Assembly (NCBI GenBank): GCA_963833985.1
Contig: CAWIAD010000002.1
Coordinates: forward strand, 4,992,001-5,056,000
Length of the DNA: 64,000 bases
Source of the DNA: an uncultured Planctomycetaceae bacterium
Lineage (GTDB): Bacteria; Planctomycetota; Planctomycetia; Isosphaerales; Isosphaeraceae
Reading direction: 5' to 3'
The notes below the pieces were generated by a model. The model was not told the DNA's origin, did not search any database, and worked only from the letters and a program-made list of their open reading frames with translations. The position numbers were made by a program, and so were the translations under genes. The first letter of the stretch is position 1. Every line of letters begins with the position of its first letter. Shown in pieces: positions 9,757 to 45,946 of this stretch.

Positions 9757-9807
9757 CTTCCCCTTTCAGGGGTGATTGAATCATCTGATGCTGGGCGAGG
9801 TAACGAA

Positions 9808-10464: not shown

Positions 10465-10610
10465 ATACAAACTTCAAGGATTTCCTCCCGGCAGCAAGAT
10501 TGCCTGACTGTCCGCGTGCACGGGCGGACGGGATGCCCCGGGCCGGCGCAGGAGAGTGGCTGGTGGTTCAGCGCGCCTCGGACGCCACCTGGTGCGTGCC
10601 GATCGGATCC

Positions 10611-28325: not shown

Positions 28326-29513
28326 ATGGACGAGACAACGGTCCTCGAACTGGCACCTCCCGAACAAGCCCGTACGGCACCGCCGGAACCGCGGCGGCGC
28401 TGGGCCGCGCGTCTGCGCTTCGACATCGGTCGCCTGGCACGGCGCTTCGGCTCGGGGCTCGAATGGCTCTTCGGGCTGGGCTGGCTGGTGGTGGGGCTCT
28501 CCGTGCTGGCCGCTTTGCCGGTTGCGCAGTTCGTCAGCCTGGGGTATTTCCTCGAATCGTCGGCTCGGGTGGCACGCACCGGCCGGCTGCGCGACGGCGT
28601 CATCGGAGTGCGCCGGGCCGCCAGGGCCGGCGGAGTCGCCCTTGGCATGGTCCTCTCCCTGGTCCCCCTCTTCCTGGTGGGCTCGTACGCGCAGACGGCC
28701 GCGCTCATCGATCCCGGCGGCGCCGTGGCGGGTCGCTGGCGGTGGATCCTTGGCATCGTGGCGGCGCTCACGTTCGTCCAGATCACCACGGCCTGCGCAC
28801 GCGGAGGACGGCTGCGGCATTTCCTCTGGCCACTGGGTATGCCTGGCTGGCTGGTGCGCGGACTGAAACAGGGAGGCCTGTACGCGCAGGCTCGCGACGG
28901 CTTCTGGGACTTCGTCGCCGCGCTGCGCCTGCCCTATTACTTCCGGCTCGGCCTGGTCGGCTTTCTCGGCACCCTGACGTGGCTGGCCCTGCCGGCGGGC
29001 CTGATCGCGGCCAGCCGCGCTTACCCGCTGCTCGGCTTTGTGGGGGCGTTGCTGCTGGCGTTCGTGGCGCCGTCCTTGCCATTTCTCCAGGTCCGCTACG
29101 CGGTCGAGGGCCGCGCCGGGGCCCTCTTTTCCCTGGGCTCGATCCGCGAGCGATTCCGCCGCGCTCCGTGGGCCTTCGCCTTCTCACTCATGGTGCTGCT
29201 ACTGGCATCAGTTCCTCTCTATCTGTTGAAGATCGAGATGATCCCGCGCGAGGCCGCATGGCTGCCGAGCTTGGTCTTCGTGGTCTTCCTGGCACCCGCT
29301 CACGTCCTGGTCGGCTGGGCGTACGCGCGCTCGTGGCGGCGCTACCGGCCGCGCCACTTCCTGGTTCGCGCCCTGGGCCGCCTGGCGATCATCCCCGTCT
29401 CGCTCTTCTACGTGCTGGTCGTCGTTCTGGCCCAGTACACCTCCTGGGGCGGCGTCTGGAGCCTCTTCGAGCAGCACGCCTTCCTGCTGCCGGTGCCGTT
29501 TTTCAGCATGTGA
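28326..29513 (+). CDS. Hypothetical multi-pass membrane protein (DUF4013-like, tentative)
   Basis: 395-aa ORF with many hydrophobic segments. Confidence 0.7.
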   Translation: MDETTVLELAPPEQARTAPPEPRRRWAARLRFDIGRLARRFGSGLEWLFGLGWLVVGLSVLAALPVAQFVSLGYFLESSARVARTGRLRDGVIGVRRAARAGGVALGMVLSLVPLFLVGSYAQTAALIDPGGAVAGRWRWILGIVAALTFVQITTACARGGRLRHFLWPLGMPGWLVRGLKQGGLYAQARDGFWDFVAALRLPYYFRLGLVGFLGTLTWLALPAGLIAASRAYPLLGFVGALLLAFVAPSLPFLQVRYAVEGRAGALFSLGSIRERFRRAPWAFAFSLMVLLLASVPLYLLKIEMIPREAAWLPSLVFVVFLAPAHVLVGWAYARSWRRYRPRHFLVRALGRLAIIPVSLFYVLVVVLAQYTSWGGVWSLFEQHAFLLPVPFFSM

Positions 29514-29640
29514 TGCGCTGCCGGCCGCGGGCACTGAGTACGGCAGGCCCTTGATCGCCGTTCCCGGTTCATGCAGAATTCTTGCGTTTTCCCGGCAATC
29601 GCACAACCGCTCAACCGCCCCGGCCCAGCGAGACCATCCC

Positions 29641-30252
29641 ATGGCACAGCGCGACGATCGTATCGACGCTTACATCGCCAGGTCCGCCGAGTTCGCCCAG
29701 CCGATTCTCACGCACCTGCGGGCAATCGTCCACGAAGCTTGCCCGGACGTCGAAGAGACAATGAAGTGGAGCTTCCCCCATTTCCAGTACCAGGGAATGA
29801 TGTGCAGCATGGCGGCGTTCAAGGAGCATTGTGCCTTCAACTTCTGGAAAAGCTCACTCATCGTCGAATGGGGCGGGGAACCGGTCGAGAAGGCCATGGG
29901 CCAGTTCGGGCGTGTCACCAGGGTCGCCGACCTGCCGTCCAGGAAGGTCCTCATCAGCTACGTCAAGCAGGCCATGAAGCTCAACGAGGAAGGCGTCAAG
30001 TCTCCGACCCGGACCAAGCCCAGGGACAAGGCGCCCAGGGAAGTGATGGTCCCCGAGGACCTGGCGGCCGCCCTGGCGGCCAGCAGTGCGGCACAGGCCT
30101 CTTTCGAGAAATTCAGCCCCAGCCATCGCCGCGAATACATCGAGTGGATCACCGAGGCGAAGACCGAGGCGACACGAACCCGGCGGATCGCTCAGGCGGT
30201 GGAGTGGATGGCGGAGGGCAAGCCGCGCAACTGGAAGTACATGAACTGCTAG
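29641..30252 (+). CDS. YdeI/OmpD-associated family (DUF1801) protein
   Basis: RIDAYIA...VHEACPDVEETMKWSFPHF; PSHRREYIEWITEAKTEATR; GKPRNWKY. Confidence 0.93.
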   Translation: MAQRDDRIDAYIARSAEFAQPILTHLRAIVHEACPDVEETMKWSFPHFQYQGMMCSMAAFKEHCAFNFWKSSLIVEWGGEPVEKAMGQFGRVTRVADLPSRKVLISYVKQAMKLNEEGVKSPTRTKPRDKAPREVMVPEDLAAALAASSAAQASFEKFSPSHRREYIEWITEAKTEATRTRRIAQAVEWMAEGKPRNWKYMNC

Positions 30253-30369
30253 CGCACGCCGGAAGCGTCCTCCAGACGCCCTCGTACGCAACGTGCACCA
30301 CCCGGCGGGGAGATTTGCTCGTCTTCACTCATGAGCGGTTAATTCTCCCTTCTCCCGGATCCTGGACTC

Positions 30370-30525
30370 GGGTGCGTCGAGCTTGCGACTGTGCGACGAC
30401 GCACCGACTGTGCGGTACTCGGGAAATCGGTGCGTCTTTACGACGCACCCTACATTGCTCATGGGATGGCATCGGTAGGAAGTGAAGCAGGATGCGTCGA
30501 GCCTGGACGACGCACCGACTGTGCA
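30370..30525. repeat. GTAG-type REP/REPIN cluster (three hairpins)
   Basis: GGTGCGTCG...CGACGCACC (30371-30405); GGTGCGTC-tttac-GACGCACC-CTAC (30429-30453, GTAG foot on - strand); GATGCGTCGA...CGACGCACCGACTGTGC (~30491-30524). Confidence 0.75.
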
Positions 30526-30656
30526 GGCCACGGTCTGTCCTTCCCTTTTCTTTCCCGAGTGTCGGGCCTTGCTAGTCCAATCTTTCGGCCTGATACTAAC
30601 CGAGTTGTCTCTATTCCAGGCTAGTCGGAACAGGGGTCCCCTGAGCGTGAGAGCCT

Positions 30657-31391
30657 ATGATGAAACGCGTGCTTCTGCGAGGACTTTTCGGATGGGTGGT
30701 GGTTGTCGCTCTGGTTGGGGGGTCGCTCTTCGCTCAGGGGATTCAGAGGCAAGGACCGCCCGTTCAAGACGATGAAACATCAGAATCCTTCCGTGAAAAA
30801 GTATGGCTCACGCTTCTAGACAAGGGGCTGATCGGGGGACTAGTGTTGCTCGCCGGGATATTCATTCAACGGGCTCTCGAAAGTTTTAAGAACGACCTGA
30901 ACTTGAAGAACCTCTATTCCAACTGGCGATGGGCCAGGAACGCGGCTCTTCTAGAGAAGATCGGAAACGCTGCGGCTGATCTGACGCAGAAGCTTGCCGC
31001 CGGAGTTCATGCAATGGCATGGTTGACTTGGCAAGCGAAATACAACCCGCATGCATTCTCGCAGGACCTAATCAAGGAATACGACATCGAGATGAAGGCC
31101 CTGCTTCCTTCATTCGTCGCGAGCCGTGTGCTAGTGGCCGTCGTGAGCAAGACAACGAGTAACAGGTTGAAACCACTGGTGGACGACCTCCTGGATTGGG
31201 ACAGGAAGATCGCCATCACTTGCACCAAGTTCAGTGAGTCACCCGAGGTTTGCAAGAAGGAACTAGCAGATTATCATCCGGACATTGTGAAATTTGATGA
31301 TAAGATACTGAGTGAAGTGGCTGACTTGATCGCCACCTGGCCGTCGATCGAGTCCGAGGCGCGAGCCGATGGGATGGCCGTTCGAGGATAG
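30657..31391 (+). CDS. Hypothetical membrane-anchored protein, lower GC than flanks
   Basis: 244-aa ORF with signal/TM segments; visibly AT-richer codon use. Confidence 0.7.
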   Translation: MMKRVLLRGLFGWVVVVALVGGSLFAQGIQRQGPPVQDDETSESFREKVWLTLLDKGLIGGLVLLAGIFIQRALESFKNDLNLKNLYSNWRWARNAALLEKIGNAAADLTQKLAAGVHAMAWLTWQAKYNPHAFSQDLIKEYDIEMKALLPSFVASRVLVAVVSKTTSNRLKPLVDDLLDWDRKIAITCTKFSESPEVCKKELADYHPDIVKFDDKILSEVADLIATWPSIESEARADGMAVRG

Positions 31392-31573
31392 TTCCGAGGA
31401 TAAAAGCGGTTAGGCTGGATAGGACCGTGTCAGAAAGGCCAATACTAGAGTATTAAGTGAACACTCGCACCTCTCCGCTTTGCAAGCGCGCTCCACCGAG
31501 AATGACCGCCAGACAATCTTGCCCACAATCCCCAATATCGCCTTGACCCGACGGAAAAAATGAAAATAACTGT

Positions 31574-31755
31574 CTAAAGTAAGAGTCGCAGGCAGATGAG
31601 CGAGCACGCCAGTGACATCCAGCCGCGCTGGACCTCGGGCAAGCGGTCCCACCTCACCCGGAGGCGACCGTATTGATGGAGCCACGACAGCGTCCGCTCG
31701 ACGTACCAACGGGTCTTCCCCAGGCCGGTACCGTGGGGCGTCCCTCGCTGCGCCA
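31574..31755 (-). pseudogene. IS5-family transposase C-terminal fragment
   Basis: RGTPHGTGLGKTRWYVERTLSWLHQYGRLRVRWDR matches the IS5-family R-W-x-V-E-R-x-x-x-W signature; no N-terminal part. Confidence 0.85.
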
Positions 31756-31756
31756 G

Positions 31757-31847
31757 GAAAGAAAGAAGAAGAAAGAAGGAAAGAAGGACATGCATTGCTG
31801 CCCATCTGGTGGAAGGCTGCATTGCCTGTCCCTTCCTTTCCCTTCTT
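31757..31847. repeat. Near-palindromic 54-bp element (copy 1) with stuttered purine/pyrimidine tails
   Basis: Core 31787-31840 matches 39484-39537 at 52/54 positions; tails GAAAGAAAGAAGAAGAAAGAAGGAAAGAAG (left) and CCTTCCTTTCCCTTCTT (right). Confidence 0.85.
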
Positions 31848-31908
31848 GCTCGAGCATTGAGCCCGCGGACTCGGGACGATCTCTCGACTTGCCCGGCATC
31901 CCAATGCT

Positions 31909-33483
31909 TCACTGGATCGTGATCGCGGTCTTGAATCCCGTGACGCGATTGCCCGAGACGACCACTCCGCCGGCGTTCGGTGCACCGTGGGCGGGGACGA
32001 AGATTCCGTGGCTGCCCGTGCCCTCGATCGTGTTGCCCGTCACTTTCGTACCGCTGCCTCCCTTCGCGGGCGGTACGATAAACATGCCATCTCCCGATCC
32101 AATCCGGAGCGTGTTGTCCTGGATGACGTTGGACTGGACGAGCGCGCCTTCGGCATGGATTCCCAGGGCAGTTCCCGTGGCGACGATGGTGTTGCCGATG
32201 ACCGCAGTATCGGCCGCGAAGATTCCCAGGCAGATGTTGCCGTCGGCCCGGCACTCCAGGGTGTTGCCCGTGATCCGGATCTGCCCGACGTAGGGCGCAT
32301 ACTCGACGGGGCCGATGAAATCGGCCAGCACGGCGCCCCAGCCCGAGCCGCCGGTGATATTCCCGCAGTGCACCGTGTTGCGGCTGAATTCGACATCCTT
32401 GCCGCCGATGAAGATCCCGGCGACGACCGTCGCATCGGGGTGAAGCGAGAATACGTTGTCTGTCATTTTCAAATGGGCCGCGTATTCTCCGAAGCCGGCG
32501 TTCAAGCCCGTGAAGCGGTTGCCGGCGAACACGCCATGGCGGCTGTTTCGCTGGGTCAATTCGAGCGGAGCGTAGCGTGGACCGACGGATGTGAACGTAT
32601 TGCCGGTGAACGCGAAATCGACGAGCGTGTTGAGGCTGATTCCCGCGAACTGACGCTCGCCGGTTCCCGTCTCGATGACGAACTCGTTGTTCTCTGCTTT
32701 GAACCCGATCGTCTCGGTCACGGCCAGCGGTTCGGCGCCCTGCACCGTCATGTTCCGGACGCCCACGTTCCTGGTCACGAGCGGTGTGATCCGGGCGATG
32801 GAGGGCGAAAGGAAAGAACGGGTCAGAGGACGTCTCAGCGTGAGCACGCCGTTTTCGGCTTTCACCGCCGTGACTTGCCCGATCTCCGTGGGTATGACAT
32901 CGCCTTGGGTGGACTCATAAATGGCCACGTCATCTTCCGCCTTGAACCGCGTGAGATCGGCGGATCTGGAGAGAGCGACCGAAGTCTCGCCCGCGGTCGT
33001 TGGCCTGAGCGTGACGAATCCGCCGTTGTACCTGGGATACTGGAAGCGGATCACCGTGTATTCGCGGCCGAACGCGAGCACGGTGTTGCGCACCTCGGTC
33101 GCCCGGGGCGCAAGTGCGTGCCGGCCGCCGGGCCCCTGGAGCAACCGCGATCCGCCCGTGCCGCTGAGCGTCACGTTGGAGCCGACAATGAGGTTGTAGA
33201 AGAACCAGGGATGGCTGCTCGGGCGGGACGAATTCAGCAGGCAAGTGCCCGCGGGAAACTCGACCACGCCTCCGCCCGCGGCCTCGGTCGCGTCGATGGC
33301 CTTCTGCACGGCCGCGGTATCGTCGGTCTTGCCGTCGCATGCGGCCCCGAAGTCGATGACCCGGAAAGTTGCTGTGGTTCGGCCTGGGCCGGCTACTGAC
33401 GATGAGGGTTGCGCCTTTGCGATGGTACTCGCCAGCAAGGCGGAAGCAATCGCGATCACGGCGCCGCGCATTGGCAATCTCAT
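31909..33483 (-). CDS. Secreted pectate-lyase-superfamily (GH28-like) beta-helix protein
   Basis: Signal peptide MRLPMRGAVIAIASALLAS; VIDFGAACDGKTDDTAAVQKAID...GGGVVEFPAG; repeated xGNT beta-helix turns. Confidence 0.88.
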   Translation of the reverse strand: MRLPMRGAVIAIASALLASTIAKAQPSSSVAGPGRTTATFRVIDFGAACDGKTDDTAAVQKAIDATEAAGGGVVEFPAGTCLLNSSRPSSHPWFFYNLIVGSNVTLSGTGGSRLLQGPGGRHALAPRATEVRNTVLAFGREYTVIRFQYPRYNGGFVTLRPTTAGETSVALSRSADLTRFKAEDDVAIYESTQGDVIPTEIGQVTAVKAENGVLTLRRPLTRSFLSPSIARITPLVTRNVGVRNMTVQGAEPLAVTETIGFKAENNEFVIETGTGERQFAGISLNTLVDFAFTGNTFTSVGPRYAPLELTQRNSRHGVFAGNRFTGLNAGFGEYAAHLKMTDNVFSLHPDATVVAGIFIGGKDVEFSRNTVHCGNITGGSGWGAVLADFIGPVEYAPYVGQIRITGNTLECRADGNICLGIFAADTAVIGNTIVATGTALGIHAEGALVQSNVIQDNTLRIGSGDGMFIVPPAKGGSGTKVTGNTIEGTGSHGIFVPAHGAPNAGGVVVSGNRVTGFKTAITIQ

Positions 33484-33770
33484 TCCGGTTCCTTCACGGC
33501 ATTCCTTCGAGCGCCAGACGCCTTGACGTCGACCGGCTTCTTCGTGCGGATGTCGCCCGGGTTGCGGACCTCGCCGGGCGGGACGACAAGGTTCTCGAAC
33601 GGGCGCCCGGCTTACAGTTCCTTGCCGATCCAGACCTTCGCCGTAGAGCGCTGTCCGGGCACCAGTCGTTCCACGCGCAAGCAACCTTCGCCGTCGCGAG
33701 AGCAGGCCGGAATCTTGCCGACCCCGGCATCATCCTGAGCTGCGCGTACCAGTCGGCCTGGCATGCAAAG
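33480..33770 (-). pseudogene. Degraded 3' remnant of a planctomycete beta-sandwich (carboxypeptidase-regulatory-like) protein
   Basis: Translates DGEGCLRVERLVPGQRSTAKVWIGKEL*AGRPFENLVVPPGEVRNPGDIRTKKPVD with an internal TAA; its final TGA overlaps the next ATG (ATGA). Confidence 0.5.
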
Positions 33771-34037
33771 TCCGCCAGACTCCGGCTCGAAATCCGCGGG
33801 CGCTTCATTTTCATCGAGAATCCGTCTCGTGACCAGCCCAGCGCTTCATACGGACCGTGCAAGGCGTCGTGTCCTTGCCGCGAGCCAGCAGGAATCCGAT
33901 GAATGCCGCGTGGCCTGTCCGTTCTGCCATTTCTGAATTTCGACGAATCGAGACATGAACATCTCCAGATACAAGACAAGGCCAATTCTTCAGGGAGTCG
34001 ACGTCGCAGGCGACGGTCCGTGACTGACGCCATCGGC

Positions 34038-37000
34038 CTACCGTGCGAGAATCGCGAGCATCCGTTTGACCGATTCCGCGGCATCGGGCCGCCTCGGCGG
34101 CGTGGTGAAGTCCAGTTCGAGGCCCTGCTCCCGGGCGAACCGGACGAACGCCAGGTGGTTGTCGAACCGCCGGCCGTGCCGATTGCCCAGGTGATCGAGC
34201 ACGACCCGCCGGGCCGGGCCGAAGCACGTTGGCATCTTGAGAAGCTCGACCAGTTCTTGCGTGGTGAGGCGGCAGGGGAAGGGCTGGGCGGCCGCTTCTC
34301 CGGCCCAGGGGAATTGCCCTGAAATTGCCTGGCCGAGTGCGATGGCAGTGAAGCCCGCTCGGCGGTTGATCTCAGCCGTGCTGGAGTCGTCCAGGACTTC
34401 AGACCAGCGGCTCTCGTTGAGATTGCGCTTTGAAACCAGTCCCATGGACACCTCACAGGCGAGCGCCTTCGCGCTAGCCCTATCCACATACCTGAGAAGG
34501 AGGGGCGAGAGCGAAGGATCACCCCACGGCCCGCCCGCTGGGGCCCTCGTGACAAGCTTCTGCATTGACGAACGTATGACACCGCTGCAGATGCGCGAGG
34601 CATCCGCCGGGTCCATCCGGCCCGCCACCTCCGACAGCGCCGACGCCAGCCACGATCGTTCAGAGGCGTCTGTAGAACGCTCAAGTGCTTCTGCGAGTAT
34701 CTTGGCAGCCTGGCCGCAAATGCGTGAGGCCTCGGTTGGGTCCATCCGGCCCGCCACCTCCGACAGCGCCGACGCCAGCCACGATCGTTCAGAGGCGTCT
34801 GTAGAACGCTCAAGTGCTTCTGCGAGTATCTTGGCAGCCTGGCCGCAAATGCGTGAGGCCTCGGTTGGGTCCATCCTCACCGCTACGGCCGACAACGCCG
34901 ATGCAACAAGCAAGCGGGAATAGGCATCCATATCATGGTCGAGTGCTCCCGCAACTGTCTTGGCCGTCCGGCCGCAAGTGCGCGAGGCATCCGTCGCGTC
35001 CATCCGCACCGCTACCTCCGACAGCGCCGTGGCCAGCGTCCAACCGGCACTGGTCTCCGTCACCATCGACGCAGACCAAAGGGTGGGATCATCCGCCATC
35101 CGGCCGAATGCTTCGGCGAGTGTCTTGGAGGCCCCGGCCGGTTCCATTCGCCCTGCCACAGTCGACAGCGCCGATGCAAGGGACGAGCGTGCGTTGGCAT
35201 CCTTCTCGCGGCCGAGAGCTTCGGTGAGCACCTTGGCGGCCTGGCCGCAAATGCGTGCGGCCTCGGTTGGGTCCGTCCAGCCCGCGACGTTCGACAGGGC
35301 CGACGCCAATGACGAGCGGGCACTGGCATCCCTCTCACGGGCCAGGGCTTCGGCGAGAGTCTTGGCGGCCCTGCCGCAGATGCGAGCGGCCTCGGTCGGG
35401 TCCAAGCGGCCCGACACCACCGACAACACAGACGCAAGATACAAGCGTGCGTTGGGCTCTGTCTCGAGCTCGAGTTCCTTCACGAGGGTGCTGGCGACCT
35501 GGCGCAGATCCGCGCGGCCTCTGTCGGGGCCATACGGCCCGCCACGGTCGACAACGCCCGCGCCAAATTCGAGCGGGTATAGGTGTTCGTCTCACGGTCG
35601 AGTGCATCGGCGAGGGTCTTTGCGGCCTGTCGGCAGGTGAGAGCGGCCTCGGTCGGGGCCGTCCGGCTCGACACAGTCGACAGGGCCGATGCCAGGTACG
35701 TGAGGGAATTGGGCTCCGTCTCACGGCAGAGCGCTTCGGCGAGGGTCCTTGCCGCGATACTAGGATCGATTCGTGCCGAAACAGCGATCAGCCGGTTCGT
35801 CCATGCCGGGTGTTGGTCGGGGAAGTCCCCCGCCAGCCCCTGGATTAGAAGGCCACTTTCGTCTTCGGCCTCCGGACTGGCCCGGTCCTCGAATTCCAGC
35901 GCGACGAAAGCCAGGTCGACCTTGCTCTGGAGTTGAAGCCCGGGATCGCCAAGCCGCTCGGAGAGGAGTCGGGCCGCCCGCTTTCTCTTTTCGGCGTCAA
36001 GGCCAACCGCGGCGATCAACGCCGGCTCGGACCGGGCGCGGAGCTGGCTCAAAGTGATCGGGTCCTTGGTGGCTTCGTCCAGGAAGCGCAGGCCGATGTC
36101 CGTGTTACCGAGCCGGGCGAGCTCCCAGAGGGATTCACTTTCAGGGACCGAGAGCGTGTCCTTGCCATCGCCATCGGGATCGAGCGGCTTGGCGAGACCC
36201 CGGGCGAGGAGGCCTTCCATCGCGTCTCGGTCGTCAAGCGCCTTGCTCTCGGCGACCTCGGCTCGATTGCGTTCTCGCCGTTCCCTGGTGGCAAAGACTG
36301 TTGAGACAACGATGCCGATCAAAAGCGATGCAGCCACGGCACCAGCCAGGCCGCTGACGGCCGGGTTCCGTCTGCACCATCGCCAGAACCGCTCGGCCTG
36401 GCCCACTGGCCTCGCCAGGATCGGCTCGCCCCGGAGCCAGCGGTCCAGGTCGTCGGCCAGGGCCTCGGCCGAGGGATAGCGCCGACCCGGCTCCTTCTCC
36501 AGGCACTTGAGCACGACCGTCTCCAGGTCGCGGTCGAGGCCAGGCCGGATCGACGAGGGACGCGGCGGGTCGGACTCGCGCGCCTGGCGCAAGAGCGTCA
36601 GCGCGTTGTCGCCCGTGAATGGGGTTTGGCCAGTCAACCGCTCGTAGAGGATGACGCCCAGGCTGTACACGTCGGCGGCCACGGTCAGGTCCTTGCGCCC
36701 GGCGGCTTGCTCGGGAGCCATGTACCTCGGCGTGCCCAGCACCTGGCCCGGCTCGGTGAACGAGCGGCCTGTGTCAGCCAGCCGCTTGGCCAGGCCGAAG
36801 TCGGTGACGAGCCGCGTCCCCTGGGGATCGACGAGGACGTTGGAGGGCTTCAAGTCGCGGTGCAAGACCCCGCGCTGGTGGGCGTGGTGCACGGCCCGGA
36901 TCACCTGGATCATCCCCTCCACTTCCCGGCGCGGCTCGCTTCGCGGGTGCCTCGCGAGCGAGGTCCCCTCGACGAACTTCATCGCGTAGTACTGCTGCCC

Positions 37001-37489
37001 CTGGTGCTCGCCCACCTCGTGGATCGGCACGATATGGGGATGATCGAGGTTCGCCGCGGCTTCGGCCTCGGCGTGGAACCTCTGGACGTCACGGCTCGAG
37101 GCGAAGCTGCCGGCGAGGATCATCTTGAGCGCGACGAGCCGATTGAGCGACACCTGCCGCGCCTTGTACACCAGCCCCATCCCGCCCCGGGCGATCTCCT
37201 CCAGCAGCTCGTAGTCGCCGAAATAGCGGACCGTCGGCAGATCGGTGTGGCCGTTCGCCTCGAGTGCATTCGTCGCGTCCAGCCCGTCGGCCATGCGTAA
37301 AGGCGAGGCCACGCGGTCCATGCGATCGAGGTCGGCGAAGAAGGCCTGAAGCGCCTCGGCGTGCTCGAGGTGCTGGTCGAGCAGCTCCTGGCGGTTGGGC
37401 ACTTCGCCGGCCTCGACGGCCAGCATGTAGGCGGCGATGACCGCGTCGAGTGAACTGTGCGAGATCGTCGGGTCGTTCGGCGTCGACAT
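34038..37489 (-). CDS. Ser/Thr protein kinase with TM segment and ~43-aa helical (HEAT/ARM-like) repeats (frameshift ~35500)
   Basis: [39 protein letters not shown] then a TM segment; repeats [32 protein letters not shown] across both ORFs. Confidence 0.92.
34609..34876. repeat. Exact 129-bp tandem duplication within the kinase repeat region
   Basis: GGGTCCATCC anchors at 34609, 34738 and 34867, with identical intervening sequence (43 codons). Confidence 0.9.
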
Positions 37490-37646
37490 GGGTTGCGTCC
37501 GATCCAAAAGATCCTTCGTCGCTGAGCATCCAGGCGCTGAGGTCGCCCTATCTCGTAAAGACGACGTTTGCTGGCGAACGAACCATGAATTATCTCGCGG
37601 CAGGGCGAGTCTGCCAGAATCGGAGCGGCACATGGTACCAAGGAGT

Positions 37647-38152
37647 TCAAGGTTCGGTCTCGTAGGGCTCTGGCAAACCGATGCGGCTGAAGGTGTCGGC
37701 GAAGTGTCTGGCGAGGTGTTCCCGATACGGCGTGAGGAGACGAGCCCGACGGCGGCCGGCCATGCCCAGCGCTCTCAGAAGGTCAAGGCGGACCGTATGG
37801 AGCTGACGCAGGTCCACGATCATCTCGTTGAGGCCAAGGTCCGAGCTCGCGGGCAGAAAGTACCACCCATAACCCGGGCCGCCCCCACCGGCCCGCGAAC
37901 GTCGGCGGGCTTGAGCAGACCTTGGTCCACGATGAACTGGGCCTCGTGAACGACCGCAACCGTAAGGTTTGTGACCTTCTGATTCGCGAGATCGCACGCC
38001 TGGGTCAAAACAAGAACTCGGTTTCTTGCGACATTGATCTCGGGTGGATCGTTCCCGTCGAGGTCGAATTCCTTGACCGAAAGAATGAGACACTGATCGA
38101 TCAGGTCCCCTTGATCCAGCGGCTCATCGATCGCGGGGGCTCCGTAGATCAT
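37647..38152 (-). CDS. Putative toxin (PemK/MazF-like fold, tentative); frameshift ~37875
   Basis: LDQGDL...[10 protein letters not shown] (ORF 37820-38164) joins YGWYFLP...VDLRQLHTV...[23 protein letters not shown] (ORF 37647-38093); ATG overlaps the upstream stop. Confidence 0.6.
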
Positions 38153-38418
38153 TGGTCGCCCCAATCGTCGGGGATCTCAGGGGGGTCTGGAAGCGGCGTG
38201 GGGCCGGGCCTGGCAATGACGGTGAAGTGTGCCGCGGGAGCCGGAAACTCCACCCAAGGGTCAAGCATCACGTCGGATTCATCGTACGCCGAGATAGGCG
38301 GCAGCTCACTGGCCTCGAGCATGCGCAGCTCGACCACCTTGCCGTTGACCTGGCACCGATAGACACGTCCAGCTTCCAGATCCACCTGCCCGAGGGCTTC
38401 GACAAGGGAAAGGCTCAT
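38149..38418 (-). CDS. Small acidic protein, putative antitoxin
   Basis: 89 aa with an acidic Pro-rich tail; RBS GGAG; ATGA-coupled to the downstream gene. Confidence 0.6.
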   Translation of the reverse strand: MSLSLVEALGQVDLEAGRVYRCQVNGKVVELRMLEASELPPISAYDESDVMLDPWVEFPAPAAHFTVIARPGPTPLPDPPEIPDDWGDQ

Positions 38419-38517
38419 AGACTCTCCGGTTCACTGGGGGGAACCAGGACACCATTGACACCCTCAATTGTATCGGCAGTCTGGGCTCGGTGGCAGGGCG
38501 TGCGGACCTCTCGAGAG

Positions 38518-39078
38518 TCACGCGGGGTCGGTCTTCATCCGTTTCCGCAACTCCTCCAGCCCCCTGCGCAAAAGCGACGCTACGGCCGGGACGCTACGGC
38601 CGATCCGTTCGGCAATCCGGGGGAGCGTCCAGCCCTGGCAGTGCTTCAAGACGACTACCTCGCGCATCAGCTCGGGCAGCTCCGTCAGGGCCCCGACCAT
38701 CCGTAGCAGCTCCTCGTTCCGCTCGGCCCGGCCGCTGGGCGAGGTCTGGTCGGCAGCCAGCCAGGCTGCGAACCCGGACGCCGAGCGGTCCAGGTCGGCG
38801 GCCAGCGACCGCTCCAGGGCGATATCCCGCTTGTCCCGCTCGTAATGCTTGGCGGCGTCGGCCAGCGTCCTGGCCAGGATCCGCCGCAGCCAGGCGACCA
38901 GCACTTCGGGCCGGTGATCGCGCACCTCGCCCAGGGCCGAATACGCGCGCAGCAGAGTCTGCTGGACCACATCGGAGGGGTCGAGCTTGCCACGAAGTTT
39001 CCGGTCAAGGTGCAGGTCCGCCAGCACCTTGAGGTACTTGCGGTACGGTTCCAGGGTTTCCGACGGGTCATGGGTCAT
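38518..39078 (-). CDS. ECF sigma-70 factor, planctomycete-specific subfamily
   Basis: YRKYLKVLA...LRGKLDPSDVVQQT...AWLRRIL...RERSL-like...TSPS...LPELMREVVVLKHCQG. Confidence 0.93.
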   Translation of the reverse strand: MTHDPSETLEPYRKYLKVLADLHLDRKLRGKLDPSDVVQQTLLRAYSALGEVRDHRPEVLVAWLRRILARTLADAAKHYERDKRDIALERSLAADLDRSASGFAAWLAADQTSPSGRAERNEELLRMVGALTELPELMREVVVLKHCQGWTLPRIAERIGRSVPAVASLLRRGLEELRKRMKTDPA

Positions 39079-39442
39079 GGGCGATCGTCGTTTCCCCTCT
39101 TCCCAGGAAGACGACGTCTTCTCGTCGATGAACCAAGTTTTTTCTCAGCAGTCACCGATTTTGACATTTTCTGCCACGGGATCGTTCGTCTCGGCTCTCG
39201 AGTCTGAGGTACTGCATCATTGTAGGTGCATGTCGGGGGCCATGCAGGCGAAGAGAGTCGACCCGAACGTGGTGGCCACCAGCCTTCTCCTGGCTGCGCT
39301 TGGCCAAGGCCGATACCGCACTGGGCTATGAGCTGGATTCGATCGCCGCCCACGTCGTCGGCAGTATGAAGGAGCTTGAATCGTTATGACCGAGCGTGAA
39401 GCAAGAGTCGCCCTCACCGATCGCTCGCTCTTCAACGAGAGG

Positions 39443-39537
39443 CACAGACAGAAAAGACGGCGAGTAAGACTGGCGAGTAAGGAGACATGCATTGCAGCCC
39501 ATGTGGTGGAAGGCTGCATTGCCTGTCCCTTCCTTTC
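39443..39537. repeat. Near-palindromic 54-bp element (copy 2) with stuttered tails
   Basis: Core GACATGCATTGCAGCCCATGTGGTGGAAGGCTGCATTGCCTGTCCCTTCCTTTC; left tail ACAGACAGAAAAGACGGCGAGT-AAGACTGGCGAGT-AAGGA. Confidence 0.85.
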
Positions 39538-39553
39538 GTGGCATCCGGCGCCC

Positions 39554-40258
39554 TTACACGCAGTCCACGAGCTTGCCCCGGATGGCTGCTTTGAAGCCGA
39601 TGAGGCCCGAGGGCTTCACTCCAGGCGGCTCACTCCGCGCCGAGCCGGTCCGGCACAACTGCTCCAGCGTGGCCGCGAACCCGTCGGCCAGCGCCTTGAG
39701 CTGCCCGACGTCCGTGACCCCCTCGCGCACTTCGAGGACGAGCATGTCCACGTCTCGGGGGAAGTCGGGTTCGGCACCCAGGGCGAACCGCCACGGCTTG
39801 TCCCGGACCTCCATGGCGAACCCCGGCCGCGCCCCGATCAGCTCACGGAACCTCGGTTCGGCGAAGAGGGTTCGCACCCTGTCGTCGTCGTTCCCGGTGA
39901 TGACGAACGCCTCGTCGCATTCGGGGAAGCCCACATCGACTTGCCGCCACAGGCCGAGCTTCCTGGCCAGGCGCGTGAAAAATTCGGTGCGGGTGACCGA
40001 GAACCGGAACCCGCCTGGGTTCGAGTAGGGTGCGTACAGCTGAGTAAACGTCCTCTCAGTCTCACGGGTATAGCCACCGATGCTGACGATCCAGGGGCCG
40101 GCCCGGGCGTGGACGGTGCCGTAAGAGTGGACCCAGCGATCGCCGAGTCGGACTGTCCGCCTGTACGGCCCGTCGCCCGGGTGGTATTCGGCACCGATCT
40201 CGCGGCTGAACCGCTGTAAGACTTCGTCCATGTGGAAGCTAGGATCGGACAGGCCCAT
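39554..40258 (-). CDS. Hypothetical protein (DUF3137-like, tentative)
   Basis: 234-aa ORF with RBS GGAGG; FTRLARKLG...VDVGFPECDEAFVITGNDDDRVRTLF. Confidence 0.7.
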   Translation of the reverse strand: MGLSDPSFHMDEVLQRFSREIGAEYHPGDGPYRRTVRLGDRWVHSYGTVHARAGPWIVSIGGYTRETERTFTQLYAPYSNPGGFRFSVTRTEFFTRLARKLGLWRQVDVGFPECDEAFVITGNDDDRVRTLFAEPRFRELIGARPGFAMEVRDKPWRFALGAEPDFPRDVDMLVLEVREGVTDVGQLKALADGFAATLEQLCRTGSARSEPPGVKPSGLIGFKAAIRGKLVDCV

Positions 40259-40289
40259 CGTGACGCCTCCCGGGATTTCGCGCGATTGC

Positions 40290-40364
40290 CGGTCGTTCGC
40301 CGCCCCGTTTCAGGCGGCCCCGGTCCCGCGCCCGGTCGATCAGGATGCGACGCATGGCTTCGCC
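40290..40364 (-). pseudogene. Internal fragment of an ECF sigma factor (kinase-associated type)
   Basis: Translates EAMRRILIDRARDRGRLKRGGE, the region-2 signature of these ECFs; no flanking gene parts. Confidence 0.6.
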
Positions 40365-40386
40365 TCCAGTCGGCTTCCCCCAGCTT

Positions 40387-40842
40387 TCAGCTGCCCCGCT
40401 TCGCCGGAGTCCCATCCCGCGTCAATGCCGCGTAACCGAATCCTGCGAAGAACAGCCCCACACCGCCGAACGCCAGCGGGATCAACCATCGATCGAAGAA
40501 GGTATCGACGTATCCCAGGGATGGCTGAGCCGCCCTGTACCGCACGGCGATGCTCTGCCCGATTGTGAAACTGGCTGGATTGGAACCGACCGCTCCTTTG
40601 CATCGATACGACGAACCATCGACTTCGTAGGCGACGACGGGGATATAGCCCCCCTCGGGGCCCGGCTGGCGCTCCTGCCCGACGATCGTCCCCGTGGTGC
40701 GGACCGTGCCGAACCAAAGGCCCACTGAGCGCACTCCGAAGCCGAGCCCGATCAGGAGGGAAACCGCGCCCATCAGCAGGGAGCACCAAGCTGCCCAAGC
40801 CGGGATGCCGTCTCGACCCTGGCCTGTCGCCTTGGATTTCAT
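40387..40842 (-). CDS. DUF3592-like membrane protein
   Basis: TM, RTTGTIVG...YIPVVAYEVDG...GQSIAVRY, C-terminal TM. Confidence 0.8.
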   Translation of the reverse strand: MKSKATGQGRDGIPAWAAWCSLLMGAVSLLIGLGFGVRSVGLWFGTVRTTGTIVGQERQPGPEGGYIPVVAYEVDGSSYRCKGAVGSNPASFTIGQSIAVRYRAAQPSLGYVDTFFDRWLIPLAFGGVGLFFAGFGYAALTRDGTPAKRGS

Positions 40843-40924
40843 CGGCGATCTCCGCTCGGCCCCCCCCATGATACACGGCTCCCCGGACGATCTCTTGGGA
40901 ATAACCGCCGATTCGGCGAAAGCC

Positions 40925-41162
40925 TTACCCCTCCGCCTTCTCGAGCCTCAGCCCCGTGATCCACTCCTCATCCCGGCCGCCCGCCGCCGCCTGCAGCGGG
41001 TCCACTTGGATCAGCTCGCCCCGCGTGCCGCCCTCGATCTTGTCGGCCACGGCCTTGAGGTTTCTTCTGGTAATCACGAACCACCTCGCTGTAGGCTTGG
41101 TCGTCGTAGTCGACGTTGCGATTGATGTCGAGCTTGTCGAAGGCAGCCGCGTCGGCGATGGC
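40925..41162 (-). pseudogene. 5'-truncated gene remnant abutting the stutter tract
   Basis: IADAAAFDKLDINRNVDYDDQAYSEVVRDYQKK/LKAVADKIEGG...LRLEKAEG* (one shift ~41060); host-like codon use; no start codon. Confidence 0.65.
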
Positions 41163-41164
41163 CT

Positions 41165-41382
41165 AAAAGGACAGAAGGACAGGAAAGACAGAAAAGGACG
41201 GAAAGACAGAAAAGGACAGGAAAGACAGAAAAGGACAGGCATACAGAAAAGTACAGAAAAGGACAGGCAACGCAGCCTTGCCCTGGCCGCACTGATCAAA
41301 GACAGAAAGGACAAGACAGAAAAGGACAGAAAAGAGGACAGAAAAGGACAGGCAACGCAGCCTTGCCCTGGCCGCACTGATC
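41165..41382 (+). repeat. Telomere-like stuttered AAAAGGACAG tract with a 45-bp direct repeat
   Basis: About 17 imperfect A(2-4)(G)GACAG units; exact 45-bp copies at 41253-41297 and 41338-41382. Confidence 0.92.
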
Positions 41383-41418
41383 TGATAGGTTGCGCAGATC
41401 TTGCCAGGAGGTTCGTTC

Positions 41419-42453
41419 ATGACGATCGCGCGTGCGCATCTGGTTGATCCGTCGGTTACCCGCTGGTATCACTGCATCACGCGGTGCGTGCGGCGGGCGT
41501 TCCTGCTGGGGGAGGGCGGGATCGACCGCAAGGAATGGATCGAACGGCGACTCCAGGAACTTGCGGAGATCTTCTCGATCGCCGTGGGCGGGTTCGCCAT
41601 CCTCGATAATCACTTACATCTGCTGGTGCGGCTCGACCCGGATGTGGCGGCGGGGTGGCCGGATGAAGAGGTCGTGCGGCGCTGGGGGAGGCTTTTTCCG
41701 CCCCGCGACAGGGCTCGAAAGGCACTGCCGGTCTCGGAGGCTTGGGTCACGGAACGGCTGAAAGACGTGAAGTGGGTGGTGATGGCACGCCAGCGGCTGC
41801 AAAGCCTGAGCTGGTTCATGAAGTGCCTCAAGGAGCCGCTATCGCGGATGGCCAACCGCGAGGAGAACACACGCGGGGCGTTCTTCGAGGGGCGGTTCCA
41901 GAGCGTGGCGATCCTGGACGAGGAATCGCTGCTGGCGACGTGTGCCTACATCGATCTGAACCCGGTGGCGGCGGGGATCGCCCAGGTTCCGGAAGCCAGC
42001 CCGCACACGTCGATCAAGGAACGGGTCGAGCATGTTCAGGAGCAGGGGCGAGCAGAAGATCTGCAAGCCGCGAAGCAAGGCAGCGTGGCGGGGTCGAAGG
42101 CGGCGAGCGGGCTGGAGGAGCAGCTCTGGCTCTGTCCGATCGAGGACCGCCGGCGGCTCGACTCGGGTCGCGAAGGGATGCTCGAGGGGCTCTCGCTGGG
42201 GAACTACCTGCTGCTTGTGGACTACACCGGGCGGCTGTTTCGCGAGGGGAAGGCGGCGATCTCGGCGGAGCTGGACGGGATACTGGAGCGGCTGGGGAGC
42301 AATGCCGAGAGCTGGCAGGCACGGCTGCTGAAGCTGGCGGGCGGTCGGCTGCTGGGACGGTTCTTCGCCGCCAGCCGGGAACGTCTGCGGGATGTGGCCG
42401 GTCGGCTGGGCCGGCATCACCTGGCCAACCTAGGCGGCTGCTCGGCACGGTGA
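41419..42453 (+). mobile_element. HUH/Y1 transposase (RAYT-like, IS200/IS605 superfamily-related)
   Basis: YHCITRCVRRAFL, HUH motif DNHLHLLV, FFEGRF, catalytic Tyr in CAYIDLNPVAAG; RBS AGGAGG; intact frame. Confidence 0.92.
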
Positions 42454-42945
42454 GCCCGCGGCGAGATGCGCTGTGTGTCGGTCCAGGTTCTGGTCGGCCT
42501 CACGGCCGAGGTTGGAGGCTGCGCCCGTCCGAACCACGCGCTCACGCACGTGGTCACGCGTATCTCTCGCCTGCGGATCGCTCGTCGGTACCACACGCTC
42601 ACGTACGCGGGCGGCAACCTGGGCCGCTTGCCCGGCACGGTGAGTCCGCGGCGACCGTGGTAATGCGCGTCGCTCCAAACGGAAGGTCGGCCTCACGGCC
42701 GAGGTTGGAGGCTGCGCCCGTCCGAACCACGTGCTCACGCACATGGTCACACGTATTGGACTGCCGGATCGCTCGTGACTGCGCCCGTCCGAGCCACGTG
42801 CTCACGTACGCGGGCGCCGAGCTGGGCGGAAGTGCAGGCTGCGCCCGTCCGAACCACGTGCTCACGCACGTGGTCACACGTATTGGACTGCCGGATCGCC
42901 GACACTGTGCCCGGGTGAGCCCCGCAGTCGCGCATGTAGTTACCG
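42425..42945 (+). repeat. Array of REP-like hairpin repeats downstream of the Y1 transposase
   Basis: CTGCGCCCGTCCGARCCACGYGCTCACG at 42519, 42712, 42779 and 42839, plus degenerate copies; hairpin ACCACGTGC-TCAC-GCACGTGGT; ~190-bp higher-order duplication. Confidence 0.88.
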
Positions 42946-43559
42946 ACCTGGGCGTAAGCGCCTGGTGTGAGGACCCCCGGACCCGCGCGGCCACCTCATC
43001 AATAATGAGCCGTCGCTGGGCGGACTGGAATCGTCAGAGCACCGTGATCGTGCCGTAAACTGGTAGGATGGGACGGTGCGTAAGTTACTGCGGCAGGTCG
43101 CTGATCTTCATCCGCGCCCTCGTTCAGGGGTTGGCCGGCCGGCTAGCAGTGGGCTGCCTGGGATCGGTGTGGGGACGCGGGATTCGTCAGATTGGAGTAC
43201 GAAAAAGTGACCGATCGAAGCCAAATGGATTGTGACCTTTAACTCACAACGTCCCAAAGAGTTACGCCCATGAAAATGGAGCGAAAGCGGAGGAGAACGA
43301 ACCCATTTTTCTGCGCCAGTCTCCAGGCGGGGAGGAAACGGCGGCTCCCTCGCGACGCGCCTGCTTGACAATGGAACTCTGCGATGCGAGGTTGAACTTG
43401 TGTTCCACGAACGTCGAATTGCCTCCGCTTTACCCGCCCCGAAAACGAACGACATCGCGTGGTCCGGATGGACCAGGCATGGCGCGACTGGAGAAACCTT
43501 TCTCTGTCCGCGGGTGCCGGTCACGTTGCTGCCAGGACCAAACCGCCGGAGACCGTCGC

Positions 43560-45916
43560 ATGACCCGGACCGCGAATGCGGTGATTGCGTGCTGCATCGC
43601 TGTTTTGTTCCAGGGCGACCCGGTTCAGGCTGGGGCGCCGCGGATAAGCGACATACGGCCGCTCGGAGTGCAGCGCGGGGTGACCAGCGAGGTGACGATC
43701 CGCGGCTTAGGGCTCTCCGGAAACCCGCGGTTCGTCGGACCGTTTACCGGCCGGGTTGAGTCGGTCGAGCCGAAGCGAAGCAGCGCGGGCCTTTGGAGCT
43801 TCCGGTTGACGGTACCGGCGAAGGTCGCAGTGGGTGTTTACCCGGTCCGCGTCCAGACAGAAGGCGGCGTTTCCAATCCCCTGCTGTTCGCGGTCGGGCA
43901 GCTTCCACAGGTCAGTGAAAAGGAAGACAACACCAACTTCGAGTCGGCCCAGGTGCTGCCGGCGATTCCCCTGGTTGTCGAGGGCGAGGTTGCTGGCAAT
44001 GACGTGGACTACTTTCGGTTCGCCGGCAAGGCAGGAGAGGTGATCGTGATCGATGCCCAGTGCGCCCGCATCGGCTCGGGCGTTGATCCGGCGCTCCGGC
44101 TGACTACCGCGTCCAGCCGCCGGCGGTTCGTCGCCTCGGCCGACGATACGCTCGGGCTCCTGACCGATGCCAGGCTGGTGGCCACGCTGCCCGAGGACTG
44201 CGACTACGTGATCGAGCTTTCCGACTCACGCTATCAGGGGGGTGGCCGGCCCGTCTATCGGCTGCTGGTTGGACCGGTCCCCGTGGCCGATGAGGTCTAT
44301 CCGCTCGGAGGCCGGGAGGGAGACACGTTGGGGCTGGAGCTCCGTGGCGGAACGCTCGGGACAACGTACTTCGCGGCGCTTCCGCTGGTGCGTTCAACCG
44401 GGACGCTGCTGTGTGTTCCCAGGATCAGCCAGGGGATGCTTGGACTGGCAACCGGCCCGGGGGCGGGCCTCGATGTCGAATCGCTGCATCCGCTGGTGAC
44501 CAGCGTCCTGCCGGAGCTGCGCGAGCCGGCCGATCCGGCTGCCTCGCCCATCAAGGCGGTGGCCCCAGTGGTGCTCAACGGCAGGATCGATCCAGCCGGC
44601 GACGAGGATCGCTTCGTGCTGGCGGTGACTCCCGGCGAGCGGTTGCACATCGCCGTCGAGGCCTCGCAGGACGGCTCGGCCCTGGACGGCGTGCTCCAGA
44701 TCCTCGGCGCCGGCGGCTCGGTGCTCGCCACCGCCGACGATACGGCCATCGCGGTTCCCGAAGCGCAGGCTGCCAAGGGAGGGATCGCACTTCCGGACCC
44801 CTCGGTCGACTTCACGGTTCCCGGCAGAACCAGCGAAATCACGCTGGCCCTGCGCGACCTCGAGGGCCGGGGCGGAGTGGGGTTTCCCTACCGAATTGTC
44901 GTCAGCCCCATCGTGCCTGGTTTCGCGATCGAGCTGGATGCGGCCGAGCTGAGCGTTCCCCGAGGCGGGACCGCGGTCCTGGGCGTGACCGTGAAGCGAT
45001 CCGCATACAATGGACCGATCGAGCTGTCGCTCGCGGACCCGCCGGCCGGGCTGGCTGTCCGAACGGGTACCATCGCGTCGGGCCAGGATCTGGGCGCGTT
45101 TTCGGTCTCGGCCACGGCGGCCGCCGATTTTCCGGCCGCACCGCTCAGGCTGCTGGGCCGCGGCCAGGGACCCGGATCAGCGCTTGACGCCGACGCGACC
45201 CGGCAGCTCGTCTTCGCCAGCCAGTCCGTCCTGCCAACCAGCACCCTGACGCAGCGTGGAGTTTTCGTCGCTCCGGCGGTGGCGGGACCTGTCCGGATCG
45301 ATGCGCCCGGCGGCGTGCTCGAGATCGCCCGCGGGCTGGGCGGCACCATCCCGGTCACGGTCGAGCGAGGCAAGAACGCCGAGGCAGAGCTGCAAGTCAG
45401 CCCCCTGCCCTTGCCGCCCGGACTGTCGATTCCGGCCACCAAGGTTGCGGCGAAGTCGGACCGGGCGGCCATCTCGGTCAACACCTCACTCGAGGCACCG
45501 CTCGGCCGGATGACGATCGCCTTGACAGCCCGCGGGAAGTTCGCGGGCGCTGACCAGACGATCGGGATCCCGGCCGTCACACTTGACCTGGTCCCGCCCG
45601 CCGAACTGCTGCTGGGCGCACAGGCCATGAAGGTGGCCCAGGGGCAAGCGGTGGAGCTCCGGGGACGCGTGGTGCGCAGAGGCGGCTTCGACGAGCCCGT
45701 GACGGTTCGAGCGAGCGGCCTCCCTTCCGGGCTCAAGGCCGGCGCGGTCACGGTCGCTCGCGGCGCCTCGGACTTCCGCATCAAGTTCGAAGCAGACGCG
45801 CGCACGCGGCCCAGGGGTCCACCGCCGTGCAGCTCAGCCTGGGATACCAGGTCGGAAAGAAGGATTACCCGTCTGCCCCGGTCCGGCTTTCGCTCCAGGT
45901 GGATCGCGCCAGGTAG
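43560..45916 (+). CDS. Planctomycete PPC (pre-peptidase C-terminal)-domain secreted protein (frameshift ~45808)
   Basis: PLGVQRG, EKEDN, DVDYFRF, NGRIDPAGDEDRF, DLEGRGG...YRI; the alternative frame gives a natural C-terminus ending TAG at 45916. Confidence 0.85.
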
Positions 45917-45946
45917 CCATTATCCTGAACCCATCAAGAGACTCTC

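Follow-up and report, generated by a model that had tools for sequence, protein, structure and literature searches.

What assembled the variable DNA that surrounds a Y1/HUH transposase gene in a planctomycete genome, and what part did the transposase play in it? The locus lies within a 64,000-nucleotide stretch (hereafter the window; GenBank assembly GCA_963833985.1, contig CAWIAD010000002.1, positions 4,992,001 to 5,056,000, forward strand) of an uncultured Planctomycetaceae bacterium, whose genome comprises 10.2 Mb at 65% guanine plus cytosine (GC). The initial annotation had read positions 30535..42945 of the window as a candidate cassette array, built by a resident HUH nuclease that inserts foreign DNA next to itself. 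We consider a different answer probable: the island appears to be a stack of unrelated segments, split by the terminal inverted repeats (TIRs) of a mobile subclass 2.3 Y1/HUH element that would join its ends to other DNA. Coordinates below are positions in the window unless a contig (C1 or C2), locus (L) or genome (G) code is shown.

The transposase and its end motif

The transposase gene is preceded by a 19-mer end motif at 41346–41364 and at 41261–41279, and the same 19-mer recurs inverted, with one mismatch, at 39510–39528 and 31813–31831 (four matches observed, versus none in 100 shuffles). These sites had been found in the initial annotation, apart from the copy at 41261–41279, which it overlooked; the shorter inverted site that it placed at 30535–30556 is likewise present in the sequence, as GGACAG with an A/G tail. 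The inverted 19-mers are the right halves of two mini-elements (‘minis’) of ∼46 bp, each comprising two inward-facing GGACA[GT]GCA motifs. The minis lie in the same orientation, are identical at 52 of 54 bp (31787–31840 versus 39484–39537), have the same 9-nt right outer unit, and each folds into a hairpin (z −3.3 and −4.4 versus shuffles). No third copy of the 54-bp mini-element was found in the genome.

The 344-residue transposase matches PF01797 and contains the motifs NHLH (residues 64–67) and YIDLNP (residues 177–182), both conserved across 50 aligned homologues, with ∼110 residues between the HUH motif and the tyrosine and an invariant T197–S198 pair. Judged from its motifs and length alone, the enzyme is a predicted member of TnpA-Y1 subclass 2.3. 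Its AlphaFold model (predicted local distance difference test score 77) best matches, among solved structures, E. coli TnpA-REP (4ER8; E = 9e-4), and the motifs and fold together suggest tyrosine-dependent cleavage with a 5'-phosphotyrosine link. The closest homologues are found in records from Isosphaeraceae and other Planctomycetota. Thirteen near-full copies, at 89–100% identity, are present in the genome (among 47 matches); the enzyme belongs to a multi-copy mobile element rather than acting as a resident nuclease.

We compared the surroundings of related transposase genes in two samples, comprising the best 80 of 229 confirmed loci from Planctomycetota and the best 77 of at least 584 loci from Pseudoalteromonas, Colwellia and Alteromonadaceae (Gammaproteobacteria). 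The planctomycete loci carry GGACA[GT]GCA upstream of the gene in 64 of 73 cases and inverted downstream of it in 46 of 66; the gammaproteobacterial loci carry GACA[CT]CCA ahead of the gene in 60 of 71 cases and, inverted, behind it in 35 of 67, the counterpart of the GGACA[GT]GCA end being GACACCCA. In the source genome the motif lies 73 nt ahead of the start codon in 13 of 14 copies examined, and 15 of its 17 genomic matches fall in the 5.5% of the genome that lies at most 11 kb from a piece of the transposase. Ten of those 15 are the copy ends themselves; of the other seven matches, five are near a transposase. The motif is therefore linked to the transposase and not scattered, as the initial annotation had anticipated, but in place of the landing site of a nuclease we identify it, on this sequence evidence, as the terminal inverted repeat of the transposase's own element. 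Because the motif has that identity, the minis are internally deleted elements and the segments lie outside the element ends.

A double-hairpin repeat with TCAC loops follows all 14 transposase copies in this genome and totals 117 copies genome-wide, some of them solitary in clusters. It is almost absent at the relatives' loci, and its candidacy as a family-wide terminator was rejected, since a lax match was found in just 4 of 80 of them. Some 20 ultra-short 21-bp hairpins (G000 C1:2608988, C2:1151312 and C2:4013738 among them) consist of two end motifs with a 4-nt loop; some of them are stuttered, and their neighbours are GTAG-type repetitive extragenic palindromic (REP) sequences and heptamer tandem repeats.

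Stuttered tails and junctions with other DNA

The tails outside the end motifs are tandem partial copies of the element tip. Duplications were counted across the 80 Planctomycetota loci, seven loci of G031 and the source genome, unfiltered for an upstream match. Of 101 clean duplications that span the motif, ∼74 begin 8–15 nt outside it, with a peak at 11, and their far ends vary from a few bases to 545 nt inside the element; duplications starting at the end measure from a few nucleotides to 557 bp. Microhomology at the joints is scant, with 0, 1 or 2 nt in 44, 30 and 9 duplications, as against 53%, 29% and 12% expected under random joining. All 15 clean duplications in the gammaproteobacterial loci are compatible with a start at 9–15 nt. 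The outer unit varies among loci of the source genome but is common to the copies in G031, and therefore appears to travel with the end. Every site had initially been credited with a stuttered A/G-rich tail; the tails do exist, but 39529–39537 is one 9-nt unit without stutter, the tails of relatives are often not A/G-rich, and non-purine outer units stutter too. Taken together, the sequences indicate that tail duplications start at a fixed distance, end anywhere, and have no need of microhomology.

For 12 tails in this genome, the outer DNA also occurs at another place. In four of them identity to that copy stops 9, 11, 11 and 12 nt outside the motif, and in six it runs up to visible repeat units and stops 18–76 nt outside. 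The end at C2:1453087 is joined to DNA that copies, colinearly and at 99% identity, a region free of insertion sequences (ISs) at C2:1400133–1413131, 40–53 kb away; the end points toward that region and the junction falls exactly at −9. We regard this locus as a likely remnant of a read-through duplication of ∼50 kb. At L185, a direct repeat of 773 bp stops 15 nt outside one element end and 10 nt outside the other. No fixed target duplication was found among 73 two-ended elements (5–7-nt matches at scattered offsets occur in 21 of the 73, a count made without a null comparison), and at C2:510432 a mini stands in place of ∼510 bp of a transposase gene.

We propose a series of steps in which cleavage, the order of events and the source of the segments are all postulated from these patterns. 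The transposase would bind the motif, nick ∼10 nt outside it on the GGACA strand, and hold the 5' end; with the nick distance measured from the motif, an outer unit of 9–15 nt would travel with the end. The flank's 3'-OH might then prime synthesis into the element and rejoin the bound 5' end after a variable distance, producing stutter and tandem duplications. Alternatively, the 3' end of other DNA could attack the bound 5' end without homology, in which case foreign or distant DNA would be joined and genes cut. Internally deleted minis and read-through copies, added at existing ends with their orientation kept, would give arrays of the form mini, segment, mini, segment, transposase. The tails and junctions fit nicking, primed extension and rejoining; the same steps are published as the model for amplification of bacterial interspersed mosaic elements (BIMEs), where, in the available text, they add repeat units (Ton-Hoang et al., PMC3333891). 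For TnpA-REP, the available portion of Corneloup et al. (2021, PMC8266576) describes how the 5'-phosphotyrosine link is resolved in vitro when a 3'-OH oligonucleotide is added. Under our proposal, capture of DNA would probably be a side effect of a selfish element at island sites that tolerate it, and not the work of a dedicated sedentary system.

The island, its counterparts and competing explanations

We searched 13 genomes of the same genus and examined four of them (G004, G009, G010 and G013) at the site. In all four, the interval between ydeI and the right flank, which the initial annotation had singled out for comparison, is empty: the YdeI/OmdA gene adjoins the right flank, and the motif of position 43358 follows the ydeI stop codon by ∼15–45 bp. 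Because of this we define ∼30270–43350 as an island (Table 1), which passes the outer motifs of the originally annotated extent by ∼270 and ∼400 bp. The palindromic repeat cluster at its left edge is also missing from the four empty sites; the 8-mer of those repeats and its reverse complement each occur ∼275 times on the plus strand of the genome. In keeping with the initial reading, homologues of the cargo genes in nine loci of relatives lie in other, separate contexts, and matching edges there lack the end motif. A 92% homologue of segment 3 in G013, for example, starts at 39537 without an end motif.

Three segments (1.2, 7.6 and 1.6 kb) are bracketed by motifs and tails, and two of them have a gene cut at their transposase-proximal edge, in agreement with the original description. 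Segment 1 ends within an IS5 fragment corresponding to model positions 209–258 of 258, and segment 3 ends within an 83-bp internal piece of a gene of ∼205–232 codons, whose homology ends at the tail. No longer homologues of the 79-aa frame at 40928–41164 were found, the gene that is truly cut lying in another frame. We also suspected that segment 2 stops within a truncated ParE gene; this found no support, and no cut gene was shown at the edge of that segment. Pfam and NCBIfam matches bear out the earlier calls of a beta-helix protein, a kinase, an ECF sigma factor, a DUF3592 gene and an IS5 3' piece, but not that of a toxin–antitoxin (TA)-like pair. The two small genes so named (37646–38429), which lie between the ECF sigma factor and the kinase, have no meaningful family match, and their edges lack the end motif; in relatives the ECF sigma and kinase genes are adjacent or have other DNA between them. 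The segments are internally patchwork, and not the discrete cassettes initially envisaged. An Rfam scan of 29500–44000 gave no matches, and a sigma-70 consensus scan of the element left end in this copy (41346..41418) likewise gave none. The lower-GC DNA that closes the island on its right (42946–43357) has no other copy in the genome.

Table 1. Features of the island and its flanks, with positions in the window
Feature	Position	Strand	Contents or basis
YdeI/OmdA-family gene, conserved left flank outside island	29632..30252	+	PF13376, PF08818
GGTGCGTC/GACGCACC palindromic repeat cluster, island left edge, no bounding end motif	30253..30534		sequence
End-motif remnant, GGACAG only, 16-nt purine tail toward segment 1	30535..30556	-	sequence
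Segment 1, 55% GC	30557..31756		244-aa orphan 30657-31391 (+); IS5 3' end 31574-31756 (-), cut at tail
Mini-element 1	31757..31847		stuttered tail 31757-31785; two inward-facing motifs 31786-31831; tail 31832-31847
Segment 2, internally patchwork	31848..39445	-	beta-helix enzyme 31909-33516; repeat protein 34038-35483; Ser/Thr kinase 35480-37633; small gene pair 37820-38418; ECF sigma 38518-39078; 90-bp ABC-permease-like piece
Mini-element 2, oriented as mini-element 1	39446..39537		tail 39446-39483; element 39484-39528; 9-nt outer unit 39529-39537
Segment 3	39538..41164	-	234-aa hypothetical 39554-40258; DUF3592 gene 40387-40842; gene fragments 40925-41164, cut at tail
Stuttered tail, 181 nt: partial element-tip duplications, one 45-nt copy spanning end motif (41261)	41165..41345	+	
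Element left end, GGACA[GT]GCA 73 nt ahead of start codon	41346..41418	+	motif
344-aa Y1/HUH transposase, predicted TnpA-Y1 subclass 2.3	41419..42453	+	PF01797; NHLH, YIDLNP, TS
Double-hairpin repeats 3' of transposase gene; this copy lacks an inverted right end motif	42492..42880	+	
Unexplained island DNA, ∼400 bp, 60% GC	42946..43357		sequence
Conserved upstream motif and large gene, right flank outside island	43358..45980	+	four relatives

The array layout recurs elsewhere, at L002, L005 and G031, but at a minority of ends. In the source genome, a 53-bp mini occurs twice at L002 and a 470-bp derivative three times at L005, in each case as direct copies, and they surround unrelated DNA that includes a ParE–Phd pair. 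In G031, eight of ten full copies of a 95-bp mini lie in two same-strand clusters of four, 4.6–18 kb apart, and each cluster has its own transposase and different cargo. Motif-bearing repeats are direct in 13 of 14 loci. Directly oriented copies of an end's own tip lie further out at eight of the 112 left ends and eight of the 72 right ends (inverted: 2), some of these being tandem copies of the element; both sides thus have outward copies, contrary to the upstream-only polarity first described. A motif-bearing repeat in G039 (C1:1955000–2003000; L219 and L220) proved to be ∼7 tandem units of 6,829 bp with open reading frames (ORFs) resembling those of a filamentous prophage, and was dropped.

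Several segments at other loci carry genes worth recording in their own right. A 10.4-kb segment between outward-facing ends at L007 contains a SMODS/DncV-like nucleotidyltransferase gene and a patatin gene (8987–11590; G000 C2 ∼2794000–2796600) that resemble a cyclic-oligonucleotide-based antiphage signalling system (CBASS). At L006 (3642–6458) a 938-aa kinase–TPR frame is the sole large gene between two stuttered tails, upstream of a transposase copy. A DUF4351 gene segment and a two-ORF unit are present in G031 at four loci at least (L123, L127, L138 and L139), with different end-motif neighbours.

At one site in Pseudoalteromonas, seven genomes carry seven different cargos. A 524-bp unit of motif plus gene is 99% identical between G036 and G047, whereas its flanks are ∼81–87% identical, and its neighbours at the outer unit differ. 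In each of the six genomes examined for it, the left boundary of the site ends at a GTTA that lies behind a hairpin, which is reminiscent of an integron attC site (consensus GTTRRRY, with a strict match at 2 of 7 junctions). This GTTA-ending hairpin is conserved at L224 (3200–3310) and the orthologous loci L163 and L225–L228, and may be a solitary integron attC. A GGGGTCA-type end, which fits the consensus of TIRYT elements, lies at the right boundary (L224:5520–5580), and in G051 it stutters like the ends described above; G036 has a degenerate copy of it, with a subclass 2.3 end attached 7 nt inside that copy. The site is confounded by the possible attC and the GGGGTCA-type end.

Might the transposase instead be dedicated to capture, a resident HUH enzyme that inserts foreign DNA beside itself and duplicates a mini each time, much as CRISPR does with its repeat, so that the array grows in order from its transposase end? 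The minis here are alike in orientation and right outer unit, restricted to the locus, and flank different segments; the cargo at array loci includes TA, methylase/ATPase and CBASS-like genes, and similar layouts occur at L201, L163, L046 and L191. Growth next to the transposase, as initially proposed, finds a suggestive trace in the 10-mer AGACAGAAAA, which occurs five times in the genome: four times in the tail of this transposase and once at 39446, on the right edge of segment 2, where the outer 10 nt of the mini-element 2 tail (39446–39483) equal the transposase's own tail unit. This would fit a segment 2 that formerly abutted the transposase, with mini-element 2 and segment 3 added between them. 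That evidence is weakened because distant tails also share 10-mers (25 of 902 control pairs); the long transposase tail shares one with five distant tails among 43 others tested, and the tail of mini-element 2 likewise matches one distant tail. Dedicated capture also sits poorly with the 13 near-full mobile copies, with an inverted stuttered motif upstream in only 7 of 53 loci, with the equal use of both element ends (∼1 end in 10 having such neighbours), with a transposase in mid-array in G031, and with segments of 1–18 kb that are patchwork and often cut genes. We judge it unlikely, and we hold as doubtful the wider idea that 2.3 transposases and minis form an integrase-free capture platform unlike integrons and CRISPR, in which a ruler-like nick next to the motif would open a site for kilobase DNA, taken up without homology and with duplication of the motif-bearing repeat, thereby building ordered arrays of defence and signalling genes in at least two phyla.

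A history without capture, in which ISs, recombination and integrases built the island and the minis and ends hopped in later, deleting adjacent DNA, would account for the many junctions without a motif, for an island that reaches past the outer motifs, for the IS elements and TA genes that crowd the same loci, for the mini that replaces transposase sequence at C2:510432, and for the Pseudoalteromonas site with its attC-like left boundary. Independent hops, however, predict both orientations, and direct copies dominate; in four other paralogue-flanked cases in this genome the mini sides are not clean insertions, and distant chromosomal DNA is joined at exactly −9. This makes such a history quite improbable. 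A purely passive origin of the tails at an A/G-rich repeat, whether through slippage of the polymerase, repair by the host or errors of assembly, and unrelated to HUH activity, would suit the minority of junctions with long microhomology. Against it, the start distance stays the same while the outer sequences differ, across two phyla and in many assemblies; together with near-random microhomology and the stutter of non-purine units, this renders it very improbable.

Several observations weigh against the end-joining element that we favour. An inverted right end motif follows only 1 of 14 copies in this genome. Characterised Y1 enzymes require single-stranded hairpins, and the left end folds no better than shuffles (z −0.1). 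Two of the 12 donor junctions, at 28 and 97 nt, depart from the pattern, about a quarter of the 101 duplications begin beyond the 8–15-nt window, and 13 of the 101 have microhomology of at least 4 nt, above the ∼2% expected, so that some slippage occurs. The left outer units of the two minis differ, and identical minis 792 bp apart at L135 enclose local repeats only. Moreover, the motif is missing from the outer edges of the island, the beta-helix/kinase junction, the small gene pair, and the 83-bp and 90-bp fragments, and other routes must therefore have helped to build the island. The counts given above overstate certainty, because loci of one genome are not independent.

Relation to known transposases and arrays

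Elements of the IS200/IS605 family encode a TnpA of ∼150 aa with a Y-x-x-x-Q motif, have asymmetric subterminal hairpins, and often carry tnpB. The transposase here scores 14.8 against NF033573 (cut-off 55) and contains YIDLNP, its ends are symmetric, and no tnpB-sized gene lies downstream of it. In integrons and CRISPR loci, an enzyme gene stands beside same-orientation repeats that separate unrelated DNA, often including TA or defence genes. Integrons use the tyrosine recombinase IntI, an attI site and single-gene cassettes bounded by attC, and CRISPR arrays grow by polarised addition at the leader, a kind of growth for which the tail 10-mer is suggestive here, with both ends in use. The present layout is similar in its enzyme, same-orientation repeats and unrelated segments; no integrase family was found among the scanned island proteins, and the segments are multi-gene and truncated. 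Unlike CRISPR, the locus has no Cas1 and no constant repeat or spacer size, and genes are cut at its junctions. A CRISPR-like role for REP-associated tyrosine transposases (RAYTs) is a speculation offered without data in the available text of PMC5581495. Subclass 2.1 TnpA-REP genes beside prochlorosin genes also show full and truncated copies among variable genes; that study proposed a diversifying role and reported no inverted repeats, and an added note by its authors withdraws support for a causal link (bioRxiv 10.1101/2020.03.09.984088).

TIRtron and TIRYT elements, as described in the accessible portion of Di Nocera et al. (2013, PMC3733652), likewise place a RAYT-like gene between TIRs, and their repeats also occur as solitary copies, dimers and clusters. 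They have the consensus GGGGWSAS (GGGG[AT][CG]A[CG]), belong mostly to subclass 2.1, and have a helix-turn-helix (HTH) tail; nick distance, stutter, foreign junctions and cargo arrays go unreported in that portion. In our family, inverted repeats are present on both sides in the 46 of 66 and 35 of 67 loci noted above, and this copy lacks the right motif. The consensus differs, GGACA[GT]GCA having only GGACAG in common, and no DnaA-like C-terminal HTH was found by Pfam or among the fold matches, residues 310–344 being of low confidence.

REPtrons (RAYT groups 2/3) and TnpA-REP, to judge from the available text of PMC3333891 and PMC8266576, share with our enzyme the 5'-phosphotyrosine nick (predicted here) and the closest solved fold (4ER8), and are characterised by GTAG-footed hairpins, C/T cleavage (between C and T), and a single-copy domesticated gene. 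The element described here has no GTAG foot at its ends, and its protein scores 39.5 against NF047646 (cut-off 80); it apparently follows a distance rule, its gene is mobile, and its segments measure kilobases. IS91/ISCR elements (PMC13181058, accessible text) and Helitron capture (PMC4778049, accessible text) resemble it in having an HUH enzyme, a fixed start, an unreliable stop and no target duplication; they also mobilise adjacent DNA, as this element may do. Both groups have distinct ori and ter ends, and IS91 also has a target tetranucleotide (same sources). Our element differs in its two equivalent inverted ends, which bear the same motif and both stutter in place of an oriIS/terIS distinction, and in its IS200-fold Y1 enzyme. 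The apparent read-through mobilisation parallels one-ended transposition of IS91 (PMC13181058, as accessible).

Subclass 2.3 itself was defined by the motifs NH[YL]H, Y[IV]DLNP and TS and is the longest class (median 325 aa), with an insert between beta3 and alphaC and a C-terminal domain (Quentin et al. 2018, PMC6006769, available text). Our protein agrees in motifs, in length (∼325–345 aa), in its long insert between HUH and tyrosine, and in several diverged copies per genome. The available text of that classification assigns 2.3 no DNA target or function, states that REP-like structures were not found next to its genes, and describes neither an end motif nor a mechanism; the genes described here are framed by inverted GGACA/GACACCCA ends whose tips stutter, and mini-elements and arrays accompany them. 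A full-text literature search, covering top matches and few subscription papers and leaving out the supplements of PMC6006769 and PMC3733652, returned no account of the ends of 2.3 elements, of a distance rule, of stuttering tips or of arrays. Already known are the 2.3 proteins themselves, RAYT-like genes flanked by TIRs, dimers of TIRs, and the chemistry of sister enzymes; what is new is that a known class of transposase shows an apparent end-joining behaviour not described before.

The inverted GGACA/GACACCCA ends provide a candidate target for subclass 2.3, with a predicted cut ∼10 nt outside, a predicted strand, and a genomic record of products. If the proposal is correct, HUH transposition would extend to symmetric, inverted-repeat elements, and the nick-extend-rejoin model, hitherto argued for BIMEs, would gain direct sequence support. 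In Planctomycetota and marine Gammaproteobacteria it would also provide a route by which islands come to vary, tandem duplications form and genes are truncated, and an enzyme able to join any 3' end at a set distance from a short motif could serve as a tool. The source genome also contains two copies of a distant Y1 gene (40% identity; G000 C2:551450 and C2:2519140), with a stuttered tail of its own before a different motif.

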